64,000 nt of DNA from Candidatus Hadarchaeota archaeon (GCA_964564905.1 CAZMCI010000001.1:7986-71985), one strand, 5' to 3'. Shown: positions 1,371-63,072, numbered from the stretch's first letter. Notes: generated by a model not told the origin, from the letters alone. Numbers and translations are program-made.

Positions 1371-3839
1371 TTAGGCGGAATATTTCATCTCGGCGATAAT
1401 TCTTTTCACCGTCTCCTTTGGATTCGCCGAGTTATAGATGGCGCTCCCGGCGATGCAGATATCAGCTCCAGCTCTGATGACATCTTTCGCCACGCCTTCT
1501 TTTATCCCGCCCGCGACGGCAAGAGGGAACTGTCCGGCTCGTCTCTTGGCCTCCGAAATAAGTTGGGTTTGTTCGTATATCCCACGTCCTTTTTGCTGTT
1601 CGCTTATACCACGGTGCAGACAGAAGACCACCCGGGACTCATGCCCCCTCAACTCCTTGACGAGCTCTCCCATCACCTCGAGAGGATCCGGGCAATCGAT
1701 AAAATCTATGAGAACGGCCCTGTTCCACTGAGCCGCCTCGCTCACCGCCTCCATTACCTTCGTCCTTCCTCCGATGGCAAGCACGGCGGAGACGTCAGCG
1801 CCCGCCCTGAACGCTATCCGAGCCTCTAGATTCCCGACATCCATCGTCTTCAGATCCGCCACGAGGATAGCTCCGGGAGCAGCTTTTCTGAGGGCCGGCA
1901 GGAGGACATCGACCCCATGTCTCTTCACCGACGGCGTCCCGGCCTCTATAATCCTAGCGCCGCCCGCGTACGCTTGCCGAGCCATCTTGGCGATGGTCTC
2001 CACATCCGCGTCCATGTCAAGCGCGACCTGAAGTTGAGGAAATTCGATCCTCTCCAACGGACTCAACATTACTTCGATCCTTCTGGCCCGTTTTGGCCTC
2101 TTGAGCGGCGGTACCTTTGCTGGTATGCCCTTTCTGCTCCATCCTCTCTCCTTATAATACTCCCTGAGAAGCGGATTCAGTTTAACACCGAACTCCCGAG
2201 GTAGCCGATCGTGGGTGGAGTCAAATCCCTCGCGTACGTTGAAGAGTCTCTCCACCGTGTATATCCTCGATCCCACCTCACGCAGGTGTTGGTTGGTCCA
2301 TTCCAGTCCAGTTACCGCGGTCAGAATCCTCGCGATGTCATCAAGCTCATATTCTAGGGTTGTGAAGAGGGCAAGTCCGTGATACTTACATCCGATCATC
2401 GAATCGTAAATGGCGAAGGCATCCTGCATTTTTCGGACCAGCGAAGCCTTTCTGGTTTCGGTGCTTGGATCGACGAACTCGGGATTGCTCAGGATCTCAG
2501 GACCGATGGTATACGCCCGCAGGTGACATCCGCCGCGATTTGAGGTCGCATATGCCAACGCTATTCCCTTCGCCCCCCGCGGATCATAAGCCGGGAGCTC
2601 CAGCCCCTTGACATGAGGAGCAAGAACTTCCAAGTTGAGTTCACGGGCGGCGGCCGCCAGTCCTTTTGAGAACTTTGACCTTCCGCTGGCTATCTCGCGA
2701 ACTAGCTTTTCTGCATCGGCGAGATTTCCGACCTCACCCGCCGCCCTAGCAAAACCCAATATGGCACCAATGGAGATCGCATCAAGTCCCAGTTCATCGC
2801 ATAACCGGTTTAGAGGGACTATCTCCCGTTCATAACTATAAAATCCGGAGTTCGGGCCCAACATGACCAAATTTTCGTATTCCGGACCTTTCCCTTCCCA
2901 TCCATTGACCCTGACCCAACGGCCACACGCGGTGGGACATGCAAAACATGCCGTACGTTTGACGAGATATCGCTCCCGTATGGTCTCTCCGGAGAACTGA
3001 TCCACATCTTCAAATGTCAGGCGGCGCCCAGAAAAATTCTCTGTCGGCAACATTCCGGCTGCTGTGATCCGGTGGACGAGCACAGCGGTGCCAAATCTGG
3101 CCAAGCTACCATCGACACCAGTGACTGGATGGGTTTCTACCGTTCGTCTTATCTTTTCCAAAATTTTTTTGTACACGCTTTCATGCACGATATTTACTTT
3201 CCCCTCGGCCCGCACGGCTACCGCCTTCAAGCGTTTGGAACCCATCACGGCCCCCATCCCACATCTTCCAGCCACACTTTCCCTGCCGGTACGAGCCCCC
3301 GCGCAGATGCATGCCATGCGCGCCAAGTTTTCCCCAGCGGGCCCTATCGTAGCAACCCATGCGCCATCGTATCTGTCCACCAGCTCTCGTCTCGTCTCCG
3401 ATGTGGTCTTACCCCACAAGGAACTCGCGTTCTCGATCGAGACCTTATCGTGATCGATGACCAAGTAAACAGGATCGGACGCTCGGCCCTCGAATACGAT
3501 GCCATCAAACCCAGCTCGTTTTAGATAAGCTCCAAATGAACCACCCATGAGGGAATCCGCAATCGTACCGGTAAGCGGTGATTTTGAACACACAGCCGTC
3601 CTACCGGCTCCGGGAAACATGGTTCCAGTGAGAGGACCGGTCATAAAGATAAGTTTGTTTTTCGGGCCAAGCGGATCTGTGCCAGGTTTGAGTTCATCGT
3701 AAAGAAGTTTAGCAGCGTAACCCCTGCCACCCAAGAAGTTATAGGCCGTCGTCATATCCGTTTTCTTCGTGGTGATAGAACCATTCGAGAGGTTCACCCT
3801 CAGCAACTTGCCGGTGTATCCGCCGATCATGAAATCCAC
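1371..3839 (-). CDS. Fusion protein: aldehyde:ferredoxin oxidoreductase (AOR/FOR family, tungstopterin) N-terminal ~600 aa + 3-hexulose-6-phosphate synthase (HPS, OMPDC suprafamily) C-terminal ~215 aa
   Basis: Continuous 822-aa ORF. AOR-type N-terminus MIGGYTGKLLRVNLSNGSI; Cys cluster RTACFACPTACG. HPS signatures LQVALDMD and ADLKTMDVG; the C-terminal half matches the HPS/KGPDC fold. Confidence 0.75.
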   Translation of the reverse strand: MDFMIGGYTGKLLRVNLSNGSITTKKTDMTTAYNFLGGRGYAAKLLYDELKPGTDPLGPKNKLIFMTGPLTGTMFPGAGRTAVCSKSPLTGTIADSLMGGSFGAYLKRAGFDGIVFEGRASDPVYLVIDHDKVSIENASSLWGKTTSETRRELVDRYDGAWVATIGPAGENLARMACICAGARTGRESVAGRCGMGAVMGSKRLKAVAVRAEGKVNIVHESVYKKILEKIRRTVETHPVTGVDGSLARFGTAVLVHRITAAGMLPTENFSGRRLTFEDVDQFSGETIRERYLVKRTACFACPTACGRWVRVNGWEGKGPEYENLVMLGPNSGFYSYEREIVPLNRLCDELGLDAISIGAILGFARAAGEVGNLADAEKLVREIASGRSKFSKGLAAAARELNLEVLAPHVKGLELPAYDPRGAKGIALAYATSNRGGCHLRAYTIGPEILSNPEFVDPSTETRKASLVRKMQDAFAIYDSMIGCKYHGLALFTTLEYELDDIARILTAVTGLEWTNQHLREVGSRIYTVERLFNVREGFDSTHDRLPREFGVKLNPLLREYYKERGWSRKGIPAKVPPLKRPKRARRIEVMLSPLERIEFPQLQVALDMDADVETIAKMARQAYAGGARIIEAGTPSVKRHGVDVLLPALRKAAPGAILVADLKTMDVGNLEARIAFRAGADVSAVLAIGGRTKVMEAVSEAAQWNRAVLIDFIDCPDPLEVMGELVKELRGHESRVVFCLHRGISEQQKGRGIYEQTQLISEAKRRAGQFPLAVAGGIKEGVAKDVIRAGADICIAGSAIYNSANPKETVKRIIAEMKYSA

Positions 3840-3887
3840 AACCTAATTAGCTCGGTTGATAAATAACCTATATGGGGCGAAAGCGGT

Positions 3888-4745
3888 TTGACAAAAACGG
3901 AAAAAATCACGGTCACGACGATCCGTGAAATGAAGGATCGCGGCGAACGTGTGACGATGGTGTCTGCCTATGATTACATCATGGGATGCATGGTGGACAA
4001 ATCTGAGATAGACATCGTCCTAGTCGGAGACTCGCTCGGAAATGTGATACTGGGATATAAGGATACGCTCTCTGTCACCATGGATGAGATGATCCACCAC
4101 ACCAGAGCCGTATCCCGGGGGGTAAAACGTGCCCTGGTGGTTGGGGATCTTCCATTCATGTCCTATCAAGCAAGTGTTGAGGACGCTATCAGAAATGCGG
4201 GACGCTTTTTGAAAGAAGGCCACGCCGAGGCTGTTAAGGTAGAGGGGGGTCGCGGCATGATCCAAAAAATCGAGGCAATAATCCAGTCGGGGATACCTGT
4301 GATGGGACACTTGGGCTTAACCCCCCAGTGGTACCACCAGTTTGGAGGTTTTAAAGTCCGCGGAAAAACTAAATCAACTGCACAGATGATCCTTAAGGAC
4401 GCGCAGAGGTTGGAACGTGCGGGTGTCTTCAGCATAGTCCTCGAATGTATTCCCTGGCAGCTGGCAAAACTGATCACAGAAAAGGTCTCCGTGCCAACGA
4501 TCGGGATAGGGGCCGGTCCGTACTGTGATGGACAAGTACTGGTTCTCCATGATCTTTTGGGTATAACTCCCCAAGTGCCAAAATTCGTCAAGCGTTACGC
4601 CAAACTTGATGAGACGATTGTGCGGGCCCTCTCAGAATTCAAACGGGAGGTAAAATCAAATAAATTTCCAACCCTCGAACACAGTTACGATATGCCCCGT
4701 GAAGAAACGCAGAAGTTGCTCAGAGAATTTAGAAAAAGGCGATGA
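3888..4745 (+). CDS. panB: 3-methyl-2-oxobutanoate hydroxymethyltransferase (ketopantoate hydroxymethyltransferase)
   Basis: VSAYDY, VGDSLGNV and VVGDLPFMSY motifs; 285 aa, typical PanB length. Confidence 0.85.
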   Translation: MTKTEKITVTTIREMKDRGERVTMVSAYDYIMGCMVDKSEIDIVLVGDSLGNVILGYKDTLSVTMDEMIHHTRAVSRGVKRALVVGDLPFMSYQASVEDAIRNAGRFLKEGHAEAVKVEGGRGMIQKIEAIIQSGIPVMGHLGLTPQWYHQFGGFKVRGKTKSTAQMILKDAQRLERAGVFSIVLECIPWQLAKLITEKVSVPTIGIGAGPYCDGQVLVLHDLLGITPQVPKFVKRYAKLDETIVRALSEFKREVKSNKFPTLEHSYDMPREETQKLLREFRKRR

Positions 4746-11811: not shown

Positions 11812-12504
11812 TTAAATTAATTTTTTGATCTGTTCAGGTGTCAGCTCAAAATAACCTCCCTTGGTCACGGACGCCGCCATAACTTCGTTTCCGGTGGCGA
11901 TATCCCGTCTCATCGCCGTTTTTATAGCTTTAACTGCTATCGGCAATGCCGTGTCGACCTTCGTGCCCTCCTTGAACTCCGTTTCGAGCACCCCATACGC
12001 CACCGGAGATCCGGAACCGGTAGCGAGCATTTTCTCCTCGACCAAACCTCCGTCCATGCTTACGAAGAACAATTTTGGTCCCGCCCGGTCCACCCCGCCG
12101 ATGAGAAGATGGGCCATGTAAGGGAAAAAGCTATATGCGTTCATGATATTCGCCACCAGCCTAGCACATGCTTGTACGTCCATCGGGATCCCCTCGCGCA
12201 TCGAGTAATATCCTGCTTCTGCTCTCATCACGTCAACAAGACGCTGAGTATCAGCCACGCCCCCCGCGGTAGTAAAGGCGATATTGTCGGTTATCTTGTA
12301 GATCTTTCTGGCCTTTTTGCTCGCTATCTCGTAATCCATGGTAGCACGAGTATCCGTGGCCAAGACTACTCCATCTTCGCACACGAGGCCAACCGTCGTC
12401 GTACCTTTCAGATATTTCAGTTTCTCATCTTTCAGGTCCCTCAATTCAACACCGTCCGAAAAACGCTGCGTTAAAAGCAGCAATTTAGTGCTGGAGTTAG
12501 TCAT
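11812..12504 (-). CDS. psmB: Proteasome subunit beta. The start is uncertain: the first ATG is at 12504, and an alternative TTG gives a ~14-aa propeptide.
   Basis: Mature N-terminus GTTTVGL, Ntn-hydrolase fold motifs. The ORF track's longer 260-aa version has an implausible N-terminal extension. Confidence 0.8.
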   Translation of the reverse strand: MTNSSTKLLLLTQRFSDGVELRDLKDEKLKYLKGTTTVGLVCEDGVVLATDTRATMDYEIASKKARKIYKITDNIAFTTAGGVADTQRLVDVMRAEAGYYSMREGIPMDVQACARLVANIMNAYSFFPYMAHLLIGGVDRAGPKLFFVSMDGGLVEEKMLATGSGSPVAYGVLETEFKEGTKVDTALPIAVKAIKTAMRRDIATGNEVMAASVTKGGYFELTPEQIKKLI

Positions 12505-25606: not shown

Positions 25607-26440
25607 TAGATGCTGTTAACTTAGCACCTCCATCCACGTTCTGAAACCTCCTTCGCCGCCGCTCGGTGGCCAGCCTAACGACATGTGTTGCCTGCATTTG
25701 TTGTACCAAAAACAGAAAACCACGGCAAAGTTTTGAATCGTCTTCAATCGCTGGGTCGGGAAGTAGCAGTCAAACGCGCGCAACCTATCCTTGAACGTCT
25801 CGAACCAGCGCTCGATGTGGTTGCGCTCTCCGCCGCACATCACGATGTGCTTCAGTCCAAGCCGCCGCGTCGGCCATCGGTACCAGGGACCACCATCGGT
25901 GATGATAACTGGCTTCCCCTTGCAGTAGCGAAGGCAGCGCTTGAGGAATCTCAGCGTATCGATGCTCTCCCGGTACTTTGTCGCCAGCAGATATACGATC
26001 TCGCGATTTTCGGGGTCTACGGCCCCAAAAACGTAAATCCAGCCGCTTTTCGTGCGGATCTTGGTCTCGTCGACGACGAGGCAGCGCCTCCGCCTCCGTC
26101 TGAACACACGTTCCTTCAGGACCTGTCCGAGTTTCTGGACCCACTTCCAGATCGCCACATGCGATACTCGTGCGCCCAAATCACGTAGGAGTTCCTTGAG
26201 CCTGCGGAGGCTGGATCCTTGCGCGTAGAGATACGAGGTGAAGACTTTCACCTCCAGTGCCACGCGCTTGCGCACGAAAATGCTTTTTGTCTGTTGACCC
26301 AACAGACTACTTGGGGCCAGGTGGGTAAGGAACTCTTTGAGTTCCGACGACATTGGAAATCACCTCCTATGTGTCCCCCACCGCCCCAAATCCAGCAAAG
26401 AATATCTCTAGGAGGAAAATCTTAAGTTAACAGCATCCAT
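25607..26440 (-). mobile_element. IS6-family insertion sequence (~830 bp) with 15-bp terminal inverted repeats GATGCTGTTAACTTA
   Basis: The left end at 25609-25623 and the reverse complement of the right end at 26421-26438 share GATGCTGTTAACTTA. Single DDE transposase ORF inside. No clear target-site duplication. Confidence 0.7.
25616..26353 (-). CDS. IS6-family DDE transposase
   Basis: VVDETKIRTKSGWIYVFGAVD...ITDGGPWY...HIERWFETFKDRL matches the IS6 D-D-E arrangement; 245 aa. Confidence 0.75.
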   Translation of the reverse strand: MSSELKEFLTHLAPSSLLGQQTKSIFVRKRVALEVKVFTSYLYAQGSSLRRLKELLRDLGARVSHVAIWKWVQKLGQVLKERVFRRRRRRCLVVDETKIRTKSGWIYVFGAVDPENREIVYLLATKYRESIDTLRFLKRCLRYCKGKPVIITDGGPWYRWPTRRLGLKHIVMCGGERNHIERWFETFKDRLRAFDCYFPTQRLKTIQNFAVVFCFWYNKCRQHMSLGWPPSGGEGGFRTWMEVLS

Positions 26441-50469: not shown

Positions 50470-51201
50470 GTGCTTGGTATACACCCGAATACTCTCAGGA
50501 GGTGGGACAAACAGGGAAAGATAAAAGTGGTGCGTCATGGAAGGGGCCATAGAAGGATTCCGGAGGAGGAGATCGCTCGGGTACTTCAGAAATCAGAGGT
50601 CTTTGAAAAGAAATCGACCCTATCAGGTCCAGAAAATTTGAAGGAGGAGCTCAAATCCTCGTTTTTGAGATACGTTTTTTTGTATAATCGGGATGATTGG
50701 GAGCTCGTTAAGCGGGCGGTTCTCATTCGGGACAATTATACGTGTGCGAAATGCGGTGGAAAGGAGCTTTTGGATGTCCATCACAAAGATGGGACTTCCC
50801 GTAACGATCCGGATAACCTCATCACCCTATGTAAAAAGTGTCATGGAGAGGTTCATGGTGAGATTTCGGTACAAAAAAAGCATAAAATTGAAACTAAAAC
50901 TCAAATTAAGCATTTAAATAAAACAAAATTTGAAATAAAGACAAAAACATCCCCGGAAAAGAAAGAAATGCCTCGTACAAGCATTATTGATGGACTTACT
51001 CCATCGGGACTTATGGAGCGGACAGCGTTTGGAGGGCTTCTCTCAGGAGCGATTGCGCTGAAAAATTTTACGGTGGAGGAGCTTGCGAATAGGACCAGAT
51101 GTCCGATACCGGTTGCAAAGAAGTTTTGCGAGCGCATGGAGGCGCGCGGCCACGTGTTGAACAAGGATGGGAAGTACGAAATGGTGGTGAAGGTGATCTA
51201 G
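50470..51201 (+). CDS. MerR/excisionase-type HTH + HNH endonuclease domain protein. The HTH first helix is encoded upstream of the annotated GTG start, but no canonical start codon is in frame.
   Basis: The upstream in-frame translation reads ...LYTVGEACSVLGIHPNTLRRWDKQGKI. HNH motif CAKCGG...DVHHKDG...NLITLCKKCHGEVHG. Confidence 0.55.
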   Translation: MLGIHPNTLRRWDKQGKIKVVRHGRGHRRIPEEEIARVLQKSEVFEKKSTLSGPENLKEELKSSFLRYVFLYNRDDWELVKRAVLIRDNYTCAKCGGKELLDVHHKDGTSRNDPDNLITLCKKCHGEVHGEISVQKKHKIETKTQIKHLNKTKFEIKTKTSPEKKEMPRTSIIDGLTPSGLMERTAFGGLLSGAIALKNFTVEELANRTRCPIPVAKKFCERMEARGHVLNKDGKYEMVVKVI

Positions 51202-52079
51202 TGAGCATTTTTGACGATAAGATAGGTCGGGATAAGGTCTTTGAAGACTACCTCATGCGCTGGGGTCTCCAGCACGACCCGTTTCAGTTGGAGATGTCTT
51301 CCATAGATCTCTTCGTACCTGTTCAAGAGGAGGATCTGAGGAAGCTGAAGTGGGTTCTCACTGGGGGAAAATTAGGAGCTCTGGTGGGAGGACTCGGCAC
51401 CGGAAAAACCACGCTATGCGAGTTTTTGGTGGCTTCTTTGAGGGAGGAGAGCCTGCTTGCCCCGGAAAGCTCGAAACTGATCGTACCAGTGTTCGTCCAT
51501 GGCGCTGCTTACCGGTCCATGGATGATGTGCTACGGGCCATAATGCTTGGTTTAGAGATGGACGCTGGAAAGGACCGCGCAAGCATGTTTGAAGTTCTTC
51601 GCAGGTGGCCGTGGGAACATCCAGAGCGCTTAGCACTTGTGGTCGATGACATCCACGAGAGCCGGGTGAATCCTAGGGACATGGGTGAGTTCCTAAGAGT
51701 TCTTGTGGACATCCCAGAGATAACCATCCTGATAAACGGAGAGCCCAAACGAATGCGCGAGTTCTTAGAGAAGGTCCCCGCGCTCAGGGATCGCATCCAG
51801 GTGCACGTTGAGATAAAGCCAATGAGTCCAGAAAGCTTGAGAAAGATGTTGGATCTACGCCTAAAAAACGCTGGTTGCGAAAACGGAGCCGTATTATTGA
51901 CCGAAAGCGGATTTAAAGCGATTTACAGGTTCAGCAAGGGGGTACCACGCCGGGCGCTCAAGCTTGCAAGCAATGCTCTCCGGTACGCGGCGAGGGTTGA
52001 TACACCCATCACGGATAAAGCAGTGAAAAAGGGAAACGGGATCTCCTTTTTTAGACGCTCGTTTGCGAGATGGATTTAA
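51201..52079 (+). CDS. ExeA-like AAA+ ATPase (AAA_16/AAA_22-type P-loop NTPase), start at GTG 51201
   Basis: YLMRWGLQHDPFQLEMSS...LVGGLGTGKTTL Walker A; LVVDDIHE Walker B; overlaps the HNH gene stop. Confidence 0.6.
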   Translation: MSIFDDKIGRDKVFEDYLMRWGLQHDPFQLEMSSIDLFVPVQEEDLRKLKWVLTGGKLGALVGGLGTGKTTLCEFLVASLREESLLAPESSKLIVPVFVHGAAYRSMDDVLRAIMLGLEMDAGKDRASMFEVLRRWPWEHPERLALVVDDIHESRVNPRDMGEFLRVLVDIPEITILINGEPKRMREFLEKVPALRDRIQVHVEIKPMSPESLRKMLDLRLKNAGCENGAVLLTESGFKAIYRFSKGVPRRALKLASNALRYAARVDTPITDKAVKKGNGISFFRRSFARWI

Positions 52080-60315: not shown

Positions 60316-60822
60316 ATGGTATATGAAAAATCTGGCTCTTCGACCGTCCAAACCCGCCTTCCAGAAGGAGAACCCTGTGGAACAATATCTGAAACGGTGG
60401 TTGAAGAGTTAAAAGCAAAACTCAGCTCAGATGACCCGAAGACCGCTGAGGAAGGGGTCCGAAAATCTCTCATACTGATTCAGCTATATCCTGAGGACTT
60501 CCTGGAAGAACTCCTAGCACCGCTCGCCTCTGCAGCGTGGAAGCACGAAAACTTTCAGAGAAACTTGGAAGAATCCCTCGCCGATATAGCCAAAAACAAG
60601 CCCACGTACCTCCCGGTGGACACGCTGCAAAAACTCAGCGAAAGCAAGCTCTGGTACCCCCGGTGGTTAACACTGTGGATCCTCAACAACATGTCTTACA
60701 GACACCCTAACCTCGTCCCCACTGAGTTGCTGGAGAAACTGACGAAGGACGAAAAATGGTGGAATCGAGAATTCGCAGAAGAGATCCTGAACCGGGTGTG
60801 GCGCTCGAGAGTGAAATATTGA
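60316..60822 (+). CDS. Hypothetical alpha-helical repeat (HEAT/AlkD-like) protein
   Basis: Helical repeats rich in W/L; weak resemblance to DNA-alkylation-repair HEAT proteins. Confidence 0.3.
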   Translation: MVYEKSGSSTVQTRLPEGEPCGTISETVVEELKAKLSSDDPKTAEEGVRKSLILIQLYPEDFLEELLAPLASAAWKHENFQRNLEESLADIAKNKPTYLPVDTLQKLSESKLWYPRWLTLWILNNMSYRHPNLVPTELLEKLTKDEKWWNREFAEEILNRVWRSRVKY

Positions 60823-60866
60823 ACAAAACTCGGCTAGAGCGTGCAGACTTGAAAGGAGGCAGATCT

Positions 60867-62345
60867 GTGGCCGAAACCTGTGAAAACCTGTATGTTGCAA
60901 AAGAAAGCACCTTGGCAACGCCAGGCAAGAGAATTTTATCCGAAAATATAACTCGCCTAAGAGAATTCTTCAACCCTGCGAGTATCGCGGTCATTGGAGC
61001 CTCGCGAGAGCCATCAAAACCCGGCAATGTTATTCTAAGAAATCTAAAAAGATCAGGCCTCTCCCTCTACGCTGTGAATCCTTATGCCAAAGAAATTGCT
61101 GGAGTGAAGTGTTACTCCTCGGTGTTTGACATCCCGGGAATAGTTGACATGGCGGTTATTGTTGTTCCTTCCAAGTTCGTTATCCAAGAACTCAAGAAAT
61201 GCGTGGCCAGAAGAATAAAAAATATCATAATCATCAGCAGTGGGTTCAGCGAGGCTGGAGAGGAGGGCAGAAAAGCCGAGGAAGAAGCAAGAGATATTAT
61301 CAAAGAATCCGGAGCCAAACTCTTAGGTCCGAATACCCTGGGGATGTTGCTTCCAAACAAAAAAATAGACACTTTTTTTGTCGACGAGTACACCCTTCCC
61401 AGACCACGTCCAGGTGATGTGGCCTTCATTTCCCAAAGCGGATCTATCTCCCTAGCGTTTATGGATTTCGCGAAAGCGCACAACATTGGGTTATCCGCGT
61501 TTGTTGGCCTTGGAAATAAACTAGATATCGATGAAAATCAGCTCTTGGAGTACTTCGGGGAGGATGAAGAAACCAAATGTATCCTGTTATATCTCGAAAC
61601 TTTTTCGGATGGCAGAAAATTCGCGGGGCTCTGTAAAGAAATCTGTAAGAAAAAACCTGTCATCGTACTAAAAGCTGGACGCACTGCACGAGGGGTCAGC
61701 GCTGCAATGTCTCACACGGGGAGGTTAAGTAAAGGTTCCGATCGAATCGTGGATTGTGTCTTAAAACGCGCGGGGGTCATCAGGGCGTATACTGAAGAGG
61801 ATGTGCTCGACTATACCGCTGCCTTGAGTTGGATGCCCCCGATGAAGAAAGGCGGGGTGGCAATCGTGGCCAACGGAGGGGGACACTGTGTTATCTCGGC
61901 GGACTTGATCGAAAGCAGCGAGGATATCCAACTTCGGCTGGCAGAGATCGGTGAAATCCAAAAGGAAAAGATAAAGAGTCTCCTTGATATCCCCATTTCC
62001 GCTACGAACCCGATCGACCTAACAGCAATGGCTACGGACGACACTTTTAAAACCACCCTGAGCGTGTTGGCGAAAACAGAAACTGTGGAAGGAGTGATCG
62101 TGGAACTGGCAACGCTTCAAGGGGTGAGTGAGAGGATGGTAAAAATTGTGCAAAATTTCTTCAAGAATTGTGGAAAACCTATAATCGTCTGTGTCCCTGG
62201 TGGAGATAGCGCTAGGAAGCTGGCTAAAAAATTTGAGGCTGAAAAAATACCAGTATATCCTTCTCTAAAACGTGGGATATGCGCTGCAAATGTCCTTTTG
62301 AAGAGGGGCATGTGGCTGGATAGAATTAAAAACTTTAGAAGGTGA
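60867..62345 (+). CDS. acdA: Acetyl-CoA synthetase (ADP-forming) alpha subunit (NDP-forming acyl-CoA synthetase, CoA-binding + SCS-like domains); start proposed at GTG 60867 with a GGAGG 7 nt upstream
   Basis: LREFFNPASIAVIGAS CoA-binding Rossmann start; succinyl-CoA-synthetase-alpha-like middle; 493 aa. Confidence 0.8.
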   Translation: MAETCENLYVAKESTLATPGKRILSENITRLREFFNPASIAVIGASREPSKPGNVILRNLKRSGLSLYAVNPYAKEIAGVKCYSSVFDIPGIVDMAVIVVPSKFVIQELKKCVARRIKNIIIISSGFSEAGEEGRKAEEEARDIIKESGAKLLGPNTLGMLLPNKKIDTFFVDEYTLPRPRPGDVAFISQSGSISLAFMDFAKAHNIGLSAFVGLGNKLDIDENQLLEYFGEDEETKCILLYLETFSDGRKFAGLCKEICKKKPVIVLKAGRTARGVSAAMSHTGRLSKGSDRIVDCVLKRAGVIRAYTEEDVLDYTAALSWMPPMKKGGVAIVANGGGHCVISADLIESSEDIQLRLAEIGEIQKEKIKSLLDIPISATNPIDLTAMATDDTFKTTLSVLAKTETVEGVIVELATLQGVSERMVKIVQNFFKNCGKPIIVCVPGGDSARKLAKKFEAEKIPVYPSLKRGICAANVLLKRGMWLDRIKNFRR

Positions 62346-62349
62346 GCTA

Positions 62350-63072
62350 ATGCAGAATAAAGAAAGGATAACGCAACTCATTAGATCTGCTCGAGATAGT
62401 GACAGGCGGGAGCTCACAGAATACGAATCAAAACAGATTTTATCCTTATGGGGAATCCCCATTGTGCGAACGGAATTAGCACGAAATGTTTCCGAAGCTG
62501 TACAGGTCGCTCGAAAGCTGGGATACCCCGTGGTTATGAAAATTGCGTCTCCTGAGATTCTGCACAAGAGCGAGGCAAAGGGAGTTAGAGTTGGTTTAAA
62601 CTCTGAATCTGAAGTCCGTCAGGCTTTCGAACAGATAATCTCAAACGCGACCATGTACAAAAAGGATGCGGAGATCTGGGGGGTAACTGTTCAAGAGCGT
62701 ATTCCTCCGGCACGAGAGGTTATCATAGGTCTGGTACAGGACGGAGCATTTGGTCCAACTGTTATGTTTGGCCTCGGAGGAATATGGGTGGAAGTTTTGA
62801 AAGATGTCAGTTTTAGCCTTGCCCCCGTTTCAGAGTTAGATGCTTGGGAGATGATCCACGAGATCAGGGGCTATCCCGTGCTTGAGGGAATGAGGGGAGA
62901 GAAGATGGCGGATCTCAAGGCGCTTGTGGATATTTTGCAAAAAATTGGGTTGCTAGCGATAGAATTTAAAAATATTGGCGAGATAGACCTCAATCCTGTT
63001 TTTGCATTCGAGGCTGGCAAAGGTGCTAGGGTGGCCGATGCCCGTATAATCTTAAGGTCCAACGGGCTTTGA
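62350..63072 (+). CDS. acdB: Acetyl-CoA synthetase (ADP-forming) beta subunit (ATP-grasp)
   Basis: ATP-grasp motifs; LTEYESKQILSLWGIPI...GYPVVMKI; 240 aa, immediately after alpha. Confidence 0.8.
   Translation: MQNKERITQLIRSARDSDRRELTEYESKQILSLWGIPIVRTELARNVSEAVQVARKLGYPVVMKIASPEILHKSEAKGVRVGLNSESEVRQAFEQIISNATMYKKDAEIWGVTVQERIPPAREVIIGLVQDGAFGPTVMFGLGGIWVEVLKDVSFSLAPVSELDAWEMIHEIRGYPVLEGMRGEKMADLKALVDILQKIGLLAIEFKNIGEIDLNPVFAFEAGKGARVADARIILRSNGL

Follow-up and report, generated by a model that had tools for sequence, protein, structure and literature searches.

An aldehyde:ferredoxin oxidoreductase-type module fused to a 3-hexulose-6-phosphate synthase-type barrel in archaea: a candidate redox-active sink for formaldehyde from pentose synthesis

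HPS (3-hexulose-6-phosphate synthase, EC 4.1.2.43) reversibly condenses formaldehyde with ribulose 5-phosphate, and archaea that lack a pentose-phosphate pathway run this enzyme together with PHI (6-phospho-3-hexuloisomerase) in reverse, converting fructose 6-phosphate to ribulose 5-phosphate. Pentose synthesis by this reverse ribulose monophosphate (RuMP) route, which is common in archaea, frees one toxic molecule of formaldehyde per pentose, and the fate of that molecule is the question raised by the locus described here. In organisms that possess tetrahydromethanopterin (H4MPT) that fate is explained by the fused protein Fae-Hps, whereas elsewhere the sink has only been guessed at, with members of the aldehyde:ferredoxin oxidoreductase (AOR) family often named in papers on metagenome-assembled genomes; such papers present HPS and AOR together, as alternatives open to formaldehyde, and a fusion of the two is unmentioned in them (PMC11291895, PMC8065059). 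For most tungsten enzymes of the AOR family, formaldehyde:ferredoxin oxidoreductase (FOR) included, the physiological substrate is itself uncertain. The window analysed here, a stretch of 64,000 nucleotides from a Candidatus Hadarchaeota archaeon (GCA_964564905.1 CAZMCI010000001.1:7986-71985), encodes a single protein in which an AOR-type module is followed by an HPS-type module. On the combined basis of sequence, structural modelling and analogy with known fusions, it appears reasonably probable that this protein would unite the reverse RuMP reaction with immediate, ferredoxin-linked oxidation of formaldehyde to formate.

The fusion gene occupies positions 1371..3830 on the minus strand, where an ATG at 3828-3830 opens a frame of 819 amino acids plus a stop; an upstream in-frame GTG (3837-3839) extends the open reading frame (ORF) to 1371..3839 and 822 amino acids, a gain of three residues. 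The 819-residue product, which begins MIGGYTGKLL from the ATG picked by gene callers in two independent assemblies, is identical on ENA ERZ27248455 k141_564839 and Logan SRR7517633, and its exact sequence is present in NCBI, ENA and Logan; the 90%-identity cluster to which it belongs includes proteins from "Hadesarchaea archaeon" metagenome-assembled genomes, in line with an origin in Hadarchaeota. An initial annotation, made from the sequence alone, had proposed that a single ORF joins AOR-type and HPS-type halves and had recommended a search for a hidden stop or frameshift where they meet; ORF and Pfam analyses confirmed the former, and the frame was found to read through the AOR/HPS junction with no frameshift and no stop, giving the same protein in independent assemblies. 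The four motifs on which that proposal was built (MIGGYTGKLLRVNLS, RTACFACPTACG, LQVALD and ADLKTMDVG) were all recovered, and its placement of the junction at about nucleotides 2000-2100 agrees with the position of the linker delimited below.

Within the 819-residue form, AFOR_N spans residues 7-208 (3207..3812, minus strand; PF02730, E = 1.4e-79, model positions 1-198 of 199), and AFOR_C, which corresponds to domains 2 and 3 and bears the predicted [4Fe-4S]- and tungstopterin-binding residues, spans residues 222-572 (2115..3167, minus strand; PF01314, E = 2.2e-96, model positions 1-377 of 385). A linker of 25 residues lying between the Pfam envelopes (residues 573-597; 2040..2114, minus strand; ...AKVPPLKRPKRARRIEVMLSPLERIEF) leads into an HPS-like (beta/alpha)8 barrel (residues 598-819; 1374..2039, minus strand), to which Pfam assigns OMPdecase at 4.2e-24. 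The three Pfam models named for checking in the initial annotation are each matched over nearly their whole length; in the numbering of the 822-residue form, the envelopes are 10-211 for AFOR_N, 225-575 for AFOR_C and 601-814 for OMPdecase.

Full-length AFOR_N and AFOR_C, four cysteines for an iron-sulfur cluster, and the expected second-shell and pterin residues together place the N-terminal module in the AOR family. C295, C298 and C302 (CxxCxxxC; 2925..2948, minus strand), three of the four predicted [4Fe-4S] ligands, align with CYACPIGC of Pyrococcus furiosus AOR (1AOR), and C481 (2388..2390, minus strand), the presumed fourth ligand, lies in a DSMIGC sequence with the spacing of DSAGLC in 1AOR; all four are invariant in fusion alignments of 23 and of 111 sequences. 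Also invariant among the 111 fusions are T248, E317/E319, Y415 and H436 of the second shell and D350 of the pterin DxxGxD motif. A second-shell Thr, Glu, Tyr and His, as well as the pterin DxxGxD, are conserved in the aldehyde-oxidising clades of the family, according to a 2025 review of tungstoenzymes (PMC12096430). No gene for an electron-transfer subunit of the AorA/AorC type adjoins the fusion in the window or in the other neighbourhoods that were examined, which fits a ferredoxin-dependent single-subunit enzyme.

The same module was labelled FOR in the initial annotation, and that label did not survive comparison of its N-terminal 587 residues with all sequences in the PDB. The highest scores were to AORs sensu stricto, namely the catalytic subunit of an electron-bifurcating tungsten AOR (9mqx, 419 bits), the AOR of Clostridium autoethanogenum (9g7j, 396 bits) and 1AOR (387 bits), followed by Aromatoleum AOR (343 bits) and Haloferax WOR83 (330 bits), as against 286 bits to P. 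furiosus FOR (1B25), 178 to BamB and 148 to WOR5. A Foldseek search with an AlphaFold model returned the same order as the bit scores, with FOR fifth and with template-modelling (TM) scores of 0.85-0.89 against five solved members of the family. Both the bit scores and the structural ranking therefore rule out membership in the FOR clade, and indicate that the module is, by sequence and predicted structure, of the AOR sensu stricto type. It shares with 1AOR, 9g7j and 9mqx the same fold (TM 0.89 normalised to the target, root-mean-square deviation 1.8-1.9 A), and all of their Fe-S ligands and second-shell residues are conserved in the fusion; those enzymes differ in being unfused proteins of about 605 residues, whereas the fusions of the clade that includes the window protein (clade A, below) lack two surface segments known from canonical AORs and shared by the second clade (clade B), one of about 15-20 residues and the other of 13, and carry a six-residue insertion following C481. 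P. furiosus FOR, the family member whose ferredoxin-linked oxidation of formaldehyde to formate is the very reaction proposed here, is the more distant relative, with 34% identity in the structural alignment; FOR-type enzymes are characterised by activity limited to short-chain (C1-C4) aldehydes.

The C-terminal half was compared with HPS and with its relatives in the same suprafamily, 3-keto-L-gulonate-6-phosphate decarboxylase (KGPDC) and orotidine 5'-monophosphate decarboxylase (OMPDC). Among NCBIfam models it scores 138 bits with Fae/Hps, 136 with HxlAB, 131.5 with HxlA and 125 with HPS/RraA, as compared with 50 for KGPDC and 44 for OMPDC; against the PDB it reaches 77-102 bits with HPSs (best, the Hps-Phi protein 9lj9 at 102 bits and Mycobacterium gastri HPS, 3ajx, at 99 bits), 51 with OMPDC and 28-33 with KGPDC, the wild-type KGPDC giving 28. 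HPS is also the best match by fold (Foldseek; 9lj9, E = 8e-14), and the earlier assignment of this half to HPS, in preference to KGPDC or OMPDC, is upheld by the NCBIfam and PDB matches. Eleven residues are invariant among the 111 fusions (Q601, D605, E629, D659, K661, D664, D709, H739, A773, G774 and G775), of which D605, E629, D659, K661, D664, H739 and G774-G775 align with solved HPSs. We take the catalytic and Mg2+-binding set to consist of the Asp of QVALD, the Glu of IEAGTP, the DxKxxD motif, the His of the HxG loop and the GG phosphate loop; within it, D659-x-K661-x-x-D664 (1839..1856, minus strand), the catalytic/Mg2+ motif of the OMPDC suprafamily, aligns with ADLKTMD and ADMKTMD of solved HPSs.

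A further test of specificity is provided by the triple mutant E112D/R139V/T169A of KGPDC (UlaD), which gains HPS activity, and whose mutations are confirmed by the PDB titles of 1xbx and 1xbz. D709, I742 and A773 of the fusion align with the Asp, Val and Ala of that mutant (1xbx), the first and last of them being invariant among the 111 fusions and I742 nearly so. Because HPS-type residues stand at KGPDC positions 112, 139 and 169, the barrel is judged from the alignment to bear the HPS signature and not that of KGPDC. Catalytic residues are kept in both halves, and, given that the cofactor and catalytic residues of each are invariant among the 111 fusions, the alignments indicate that both halves are under purifying selection.

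An AlphaFold2 model, built from the alignment of 111 fusions, has a mean predicted local distance difference test score (pLDDT) of 94.1 and a predicted TM score (pTM) of 0.90 over the whole chain; the linker blocks score about 80-93 and are thus not disordered, and pLDDT falls below 50 only at residues 742-748, the loop that follows the catalytic His. Since a pTM of 0.90 was estimated to be unreachable if modules making up about 70% and 27% of the chain were arbitrarily oriented, the model predicts a rigid and fixed placement of the two modules with respect to each other. No PDB chain covers both modules when searched with the model in Foldseek (maximum query-normalised TM 0.66). By analogy with dimeric AORs and with the obligately dimeric barrels of the OMPDC suprafamily, the protein would probably form a homodimer or a larger assembly.

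In the mechanism that these features suggest, a separately encoded PHI would convert fructose 6-phosphate to hexulose 6-phosphate, which the HPS module would cleave to ribulose 5-phosphate, the pentose precursor, and formaldehyde. The AOR module would then oxidise the formaldehyde to formate and pass two electrons by way of its [4Fe-4S] cluster to ferredoxin. Removal of formaldehyde would pull an otherwise unfavourable aldol cleavage, avert toxicity and save two low-potential electrons, and the AOR module would thereby take the job that Fae performs in Fae-Hps, with no need of H4MPT. We infer that the AOR module acts on formaldehyde, that flux runs in this direction, and that the acceptor is ferredoxin and the metal tungsten; the same holds for any channelling between the sites. 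The logic of the proposal has published precedents, in that Fae fused to HPS has been thought to be able to "immediately capture formaldehyde" (PMC5241800) and AOR-family enzymes have been put forward as formaldehyde sinks beside RuMP enzymes in papers on metagenome-assembled genomes (PMC8065059, PMC11291895).

The fusion is by no means confined to the window. Among the best 120 matches from a family search of 5.8 billion cluster representatives, 113 carry the AFOR plus OMPdecase architecture in whole or in part, at identities ranging from 95% down to 41%, and the same three-domain architecture occurs in more than 110 clusters (90% identity), nearly all with proteins of about 800-840 residues. 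Carriers, by source name, include Hadarchaeota/Hadesarchaea, Bathyarchaeia, Nezhaarchaeales, Methanomethylicaceae (Verstraetearchaeota), Thermoprotei and Hodarchaeales/Promethearchaeota (Asgard), and several of the fusions lie on contigs of more than 1 Mb; a contig scan with an AOR motif matched mostly generic AORs, the only fusions among them being two loci, L005 and L006. The initial annotation had allowed that such a fusion might turn out to be common and already annotated as a Fae/Hps-type protein. Common it is, but it has never been named as bifunctional or as Fae/Hps-type: family members are listed as "hypothetical protein", "aldehyde ferredoxin oxidoreductase", "AOR C-terminal domain-containing protein", "3-hexulose-6-phosphate synthase", "orotidine 5'-phosphate decarboxylase" or "DUF561 domain-containing protein", so that the family is inconsistently named and annotated as monofunctional.

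Clustering at 50% identity yielded two main clusters, with P0062 and P0097 as their representatives, and the single protein P0121, a 992-residue sequence in which AFOR_N and AFOR_C are followed by two OMPdecase-like stretches (at about 600-710 and 781-984), as might arise by duplication, insertion or chimerism. Clade A comprises Hadarchaeota and Bathyarchaeia and includes the window protein, while clade B comprises Methanomethylicia, Nezhaarchaeales and Asgard archaea; in the fusion alignment the clade-A linker exceeds that of clade B by about 10 residues. Neighbour-joining trees were computed from BLOSUM distances with no bootstrap, the AOR tree being built with no characterised references. 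In the AOR tree clades A and B are each coherent and are not sisters, and in the HPS tree clade A forms a deep branch of its own, with clade B nested among ordinary archaeal HPSs. This separation of the clades in both trees, whose deep nodes are without support values, suggests that AOR and HPS were possibly fused twice independently, in the same N-to-C order.

Forms in which the two modules are separate bear on the same question. The closest unfused AORs (P0065-P0071; 562-571 residues, 54-59% identity) are followed by a 271-residue OMPdecase gene that begins at the next nucleotide, an arrangement seen in one Bathyarchaeia lineage from two independent samples (L003, 7687-7692; L004, 1887-1892). 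The two ORFs share a frame, and the conserved RGWxxxGIP motif at the AOR C-terminus is interrupted by a TAG with a TTG start directly behind it, giving ...RGWV, the stop, and then LDGIPHKYPPLK, where the window has RGWSRKGIPAKVPPLK. As the AORs of this lineage nest inside fusion clade A in the neighbour-joining tree, the simplest reading of the sequences is a secondary fission, after which the HPS polypeptide would have retained the AOR tail and the linker; that retention implies that the two split proteins would still associate. Recoding of the TAG (by pyrrolysine or read-through) was considered as the cause of the split and set aside, TAG being an ordinary stop in L003, where it ends six other genes, each with a further in-frame stop close downstream; P0065, one of the split homologues, terminates a few residues further on, and local read-through at the split-site TAG may occur. 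The abutting split forms, the fused forms and the two possibly independent fusions together support a linkage between AOR and HPS.

A search with the HPS domain brought up free-standing proteins of 230-290 residues, at 53-85% identity, in Hadarchaeales, Bathyarchaeia, Geothermarchaeales and MSBL1, part of which are the HPS halves of split pairs. Three Hadarchaeales loci (L088-L090) encode a 232-residue HPS in the synteny of the window, with eIF5A, a small ORF and, divergent from the HPS gene, panB, and have no AOR within 5 kb of HPS; panB also adjoins the fused form in L005, a GTDB species representative whose fusion is 77% identical to that of the window. Comparison of these loci indicates that the presence of the AOR module varies by lineage, the module having been either added to a resident HPS gene or lost from it. 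One apparently free-standing clade-B HPS (P0302, "DUF561") was rejected as such, being a truncated gene call: in the Verstraetearchaeota genome GCA_020832905.1 an intact fusion ORF of 835 residues (L095, 3198-5705) has been called only as its last 234 residues, with the 1.8-kb AOR part left uncalled. P0303 and P0410 probably have the same cause.

The preferred reading, of formaldehyde released by HPS and oxidised at once by AOR, is thus favoured by an intact ORF, a widely conserved architecture, conservation of both active sites, HPS-type residues in the barrel and a fixed modelled arrangement of the modules. Several observations nonetheless weigh on the other side. The barrel scores 131.5 bits with TIGR03128, as compared with a cut-off of 200, and falls below the curated cut-off of every HPS-containing equivalog; clade-A barrels moreover form a divergent subfamily, with Fae-Hps, Hps-Phi, HPS-RraA proteins and clade B, like every other HPS type, at most 42% identical to them. 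The AOR half lies outside the FOR clade and its sequence gives no proof that formaldehyde is the substrate, and even for FOR the physiological substrate is disputed and may be glutaric (semi)aldehyde instead (PMC12096430). Some Hadarchaeales have HPS alone in the same locus, so that the AOR module is dispensable. The pathway context is also lacking: no gene for PHI, Fae, formate dehydrogenase or the pentose-phosphate pathway lies within the 64-kb window, and PHI is adjacent at none of the loci examined.

The main rival, which we regard as unlikely, is the same pair of reactions run in the assimilatory direction, whereby reduced ferredoxin (for example from oxidation of CO or H2) would drive reduction of formate to formaldehyde by the AOR module, and HPS would trap the product on ribulose 5-phosphate, leading through hexulose 6-phosphate to fructose 6-phosphate. 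The architecture is neutral as to direction, and all of the structural results fit this alternative equally well. AOR-family enzymes reduce carboxylic acids when given reduced ferredoxin, the nearest solved relatives include the C. autoethanogenum and electron-bifurcating AORs, and the equilibrium of HPS favours condensation, so that in a fused enzyme an unfavourable reduction of formate would be drawn forward and no formaldehyde set free; Hadarchaeota have been described as CO oxidisers (PMC10811742). A net gain would, however, need a cycle regenerating ribulose 5-phosphate (through transketolase, transaldolase or equivalents), and such enzymes are lacking in most archaea that use RuMP enzymes (PMC5241800, PMC8407382). 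In addition, the free HPS in the same panB-linked locus of sister Hadarchaeales suggests that AOR was added to an HPS with a housekeeping role in biosynthesis, and the fusion is found in methyl-reducing methanogens and Asgard heterotrophs, which are not specifically users of formate or CO.

A role as a general scavenger, in which the modules would separately remove exogenous formaldehyde (HPS fixing it and AOR oxidising it), or AOR would clear assorted aldehydes, with fusion serving for co-expression only, is rather improbable. It draws on the resemblance of the AOR half to broad-spectrum AORs more than to FOR, and on proposals that RuMP enzymes and AFOR both detoxify formaldehyde in geothermal archaea (PMC8065059); co-expression, however, does not need a covalent fusion, and neither the recurrence of one N-to-C order in two possibly independent clades, nor the predicted rigid interface, nor the AOR tail on the split HPS polypeptide (which implies a persistent complex) is expected of it. 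Very improbable, in our estimation, is a barrel that is not an HPS at all and acts instead as a diverged lyase or decarboxylase of the OMPDC suprafamily on some other sugar phosphate, with AOR processing a larger aldehyde that it releases or an acid that it consumes. The sub-threshold scores, the deep clade-A branch distant from validated HPS types and the broad-substrate character of the AOR half are in its favour, but every library used ranks HPS first, the Mg2+ and catalytic residues are invariant, as are D709 and A773 (I742 nearly), and clade-B barrels bearing the same fusion nest among ordinary archaeal HPSs. A spurious joining of adjacent genes through chimeric assembly or sequencing error, or through a frameshift or stop that escaped notice, has a negligible probability and was ruled out, for although such errors do occur in these data (in L005 the reading frame shifts inside the HPS part at about 11986-12001, through assembly error or as a pseudogene), the identical ORF is present in independent assemblies, the family includes more than 110 diverged homologues of full length, and the linker is conserved and confidently modelled.

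The preferred arrangement, with AOR as the consumer of HPS-derived formaldehyde, can be set beside the known fusion partners of HPS, which are Fae, PHI and a MenG/RraA-like domain (PMC5241800). The closest parallel is Fae-Hps, the top NCBIfam model for the C-terminal half, in which an HPS barrel is covalently joined to a formaldehyde consumer thought to capture the formaldehyde of the reverse RuMP reaction at once (PMC5241800); the partner there is the small, H4MPT-dependent Fae and the product methylene-H4MPT, whereas here the partner is predicted to be an N-terminal tungstopterin/[4Fe-4S] oxidoreductase of about 570 residues, and the products are presumed to be formate and reduced ferredoxin, making an H4MPT-independent and redox-active sink. 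Hps-Phi of Thermococcales (9lj9; NF041755), the solved structure that comes closest to the HPS half, is likewise an archaeal HPS fusion of the reverse RuMP route, but its partner is the preceding enzyme of the pathway (a SIS domain) and not a formaldehyde sink. HPS-MenG and HPS-RraA-like proteins (PRK07028; Mhun0647, PMC5241800), representatives of which (PF03737 plus PF00215) were among the matches of the HPS-domain search, again combine an archaeal HPS with a C1- (one-carbon-) or aldolase-related partner, although that partner has no redox cofactor, is of unassigned function and is unrelated to AOR. The window protein has no Fae (PF08714), SIS/PHI (PF01380) or RraA/MenG-like (PF03737) domain by Pfam or NCBIfam.

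The statement in the initial annotation that this architecture had not been described is in keeping with what was found, no description of an AOR-HPS fusion having come to light in the searchable full text of 7.7 million PMC papers and 0.34 million bioRxiv preprints, a scope that leaves aside subscription-only literature. NCBIfam release 20, which has models for the Fae, PHI and RraA fusions, has none that spans this one from end to end. A survey of fusion and fission in archaeal families treats Hps-Phi and Fae/Hps and does not contain the word "aldehyde" in its text, and neither AFOR nor OMPdecase is listed among the supplementary-table entries covered; another survey, of fused domains in molybdo- and tungstoenzymes, reports new fusions for the DMSOR, SO and XO families only, and neither "fusion" nor "hexulose" occurs in the 2025 tungstoenzyme review (PMC12096430). 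The AOR-HPS protein is accordingly a new member of the set of HPS fusions, distinguished by a redox-active partner, and its components are familiar.

A conserved and occasionally re-split fusion of this kind is a direct genomic link between one AOR lineage and a defined source of aldehyde, and the questions of formaldehyde fate and of AOR substrate may both be addressed with a single recombinant protein. The carriers include lineages of wide interest, such as the now-cultured methyl-reducing Methanomethylicia, and mis-annotated or truncated database entries of the fusion affect metabolic reconstructions. If reversible, the protein would offer a compact natural template for ferredoxin-driven formate assimilation. 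A bolder proposal, that it is a channelling module which has arisen twice, replaces Fae in archaea without the H4MPT-linked C1 branch and works in both directions, reducing formate with ferredoxin and fixing the formaldehyde onto ribulose 5-phosphate, seems doubtful to us; if true, a reversible module would amount to a previously unrecognised ferredoxin-dependent entry of formate into sugar phosphates, and to a natural counterpart of engineered routes from formate through formaldehyde to RuMP.

In the window, the fusion gene is divergent from panB (ketopantoate hydroxymethyltransferase, PF02548; 3888..4745, plus strand, with a start at 3930 inferred from a 271-residue gene call in L001), and the intergenic region common to the two (3831..3929) contains the AT-rich, TATA-like stretches TTGATAAATAA and CCTATATGG, which make it a candidate promoter. 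Divergent pairing of panB with the HPS-bearing gene, whether fused or free, was found in all of the Hadarchaeota loci that were fetched (the window, L001, L002, L005 and L088-L090), and was absent at the Bathyarchaeia and Geothermarchaeales loci examined. PanB requires a C1 donor at the oxidation level of formaldehyde, and a functional link to HPS-derived formaldehyde is conceivable. Genes for PHI, Fae, formate dehydrogenase, ferredoxin and Aor subunits were sought as conserved operon partners, and none was found in the window or in four other contexts, and the neighbourhoods of the clade-A protein P0041 and the clade-B protein P0080 have nothing in common with the window; the fusion gene behaves as a stand-alone housekeeping gene. 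Just upstream of two clade-B fusions, in a Nezhaarchaeota genome (L087, 9661-9939, minus strand) and in the Verstraetearchaeota genome mentioned above (L095, 2854-3132, minus strand), lies a small divergent gene of the ThiS/MoaD family (PF02597), which may be linked to synthesis of the pterin cofactor.

The remainder of the window is core chromosome, with a ribosomal-protein/SecY operon, RNA polymerase subunit D, NrdD and its activase, ThyX, dCTP deaminase, ADP-forming acetyl-CoA synthetase, an Lhr helicase and SMC-like proteins. Despite the large ribosomal-protein operon, nothing in the 64 kb reached threshold as a tRNA, an rRNA or a member of any Rfam family. The ADP-forming acetyl-CoA synthetase is encoded by two adjacent ORFs (60756-62345 and 62350-63072, plus strand; 529 and 240 residues), and is a single fused protein of 707 residues in the Hadarchaeales locus L088 (6750-8873), a second fusion/fission polymorphism within the phylum. 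Two regions represent possible mobile elements, namely a DDE transposase with IS240/IS66-like matches just upstream of the ribosomal-protein operon (25616-26353, minus strand), and a MerR-HTH/HNH protein gene that overlaps one for an AAA_22 ATPase (50470-52079, plus strand), where the G+C content is about 0.48 as against about 0.53. Convergent with the fusion gene, at 181-1317 on the plus strand, is the C-terminal part of an 889-residue S8 peptidase that has CARDB repeats and, at its C-terminus, a hydrophobic anchor, the gene for which is present at full length in L001.

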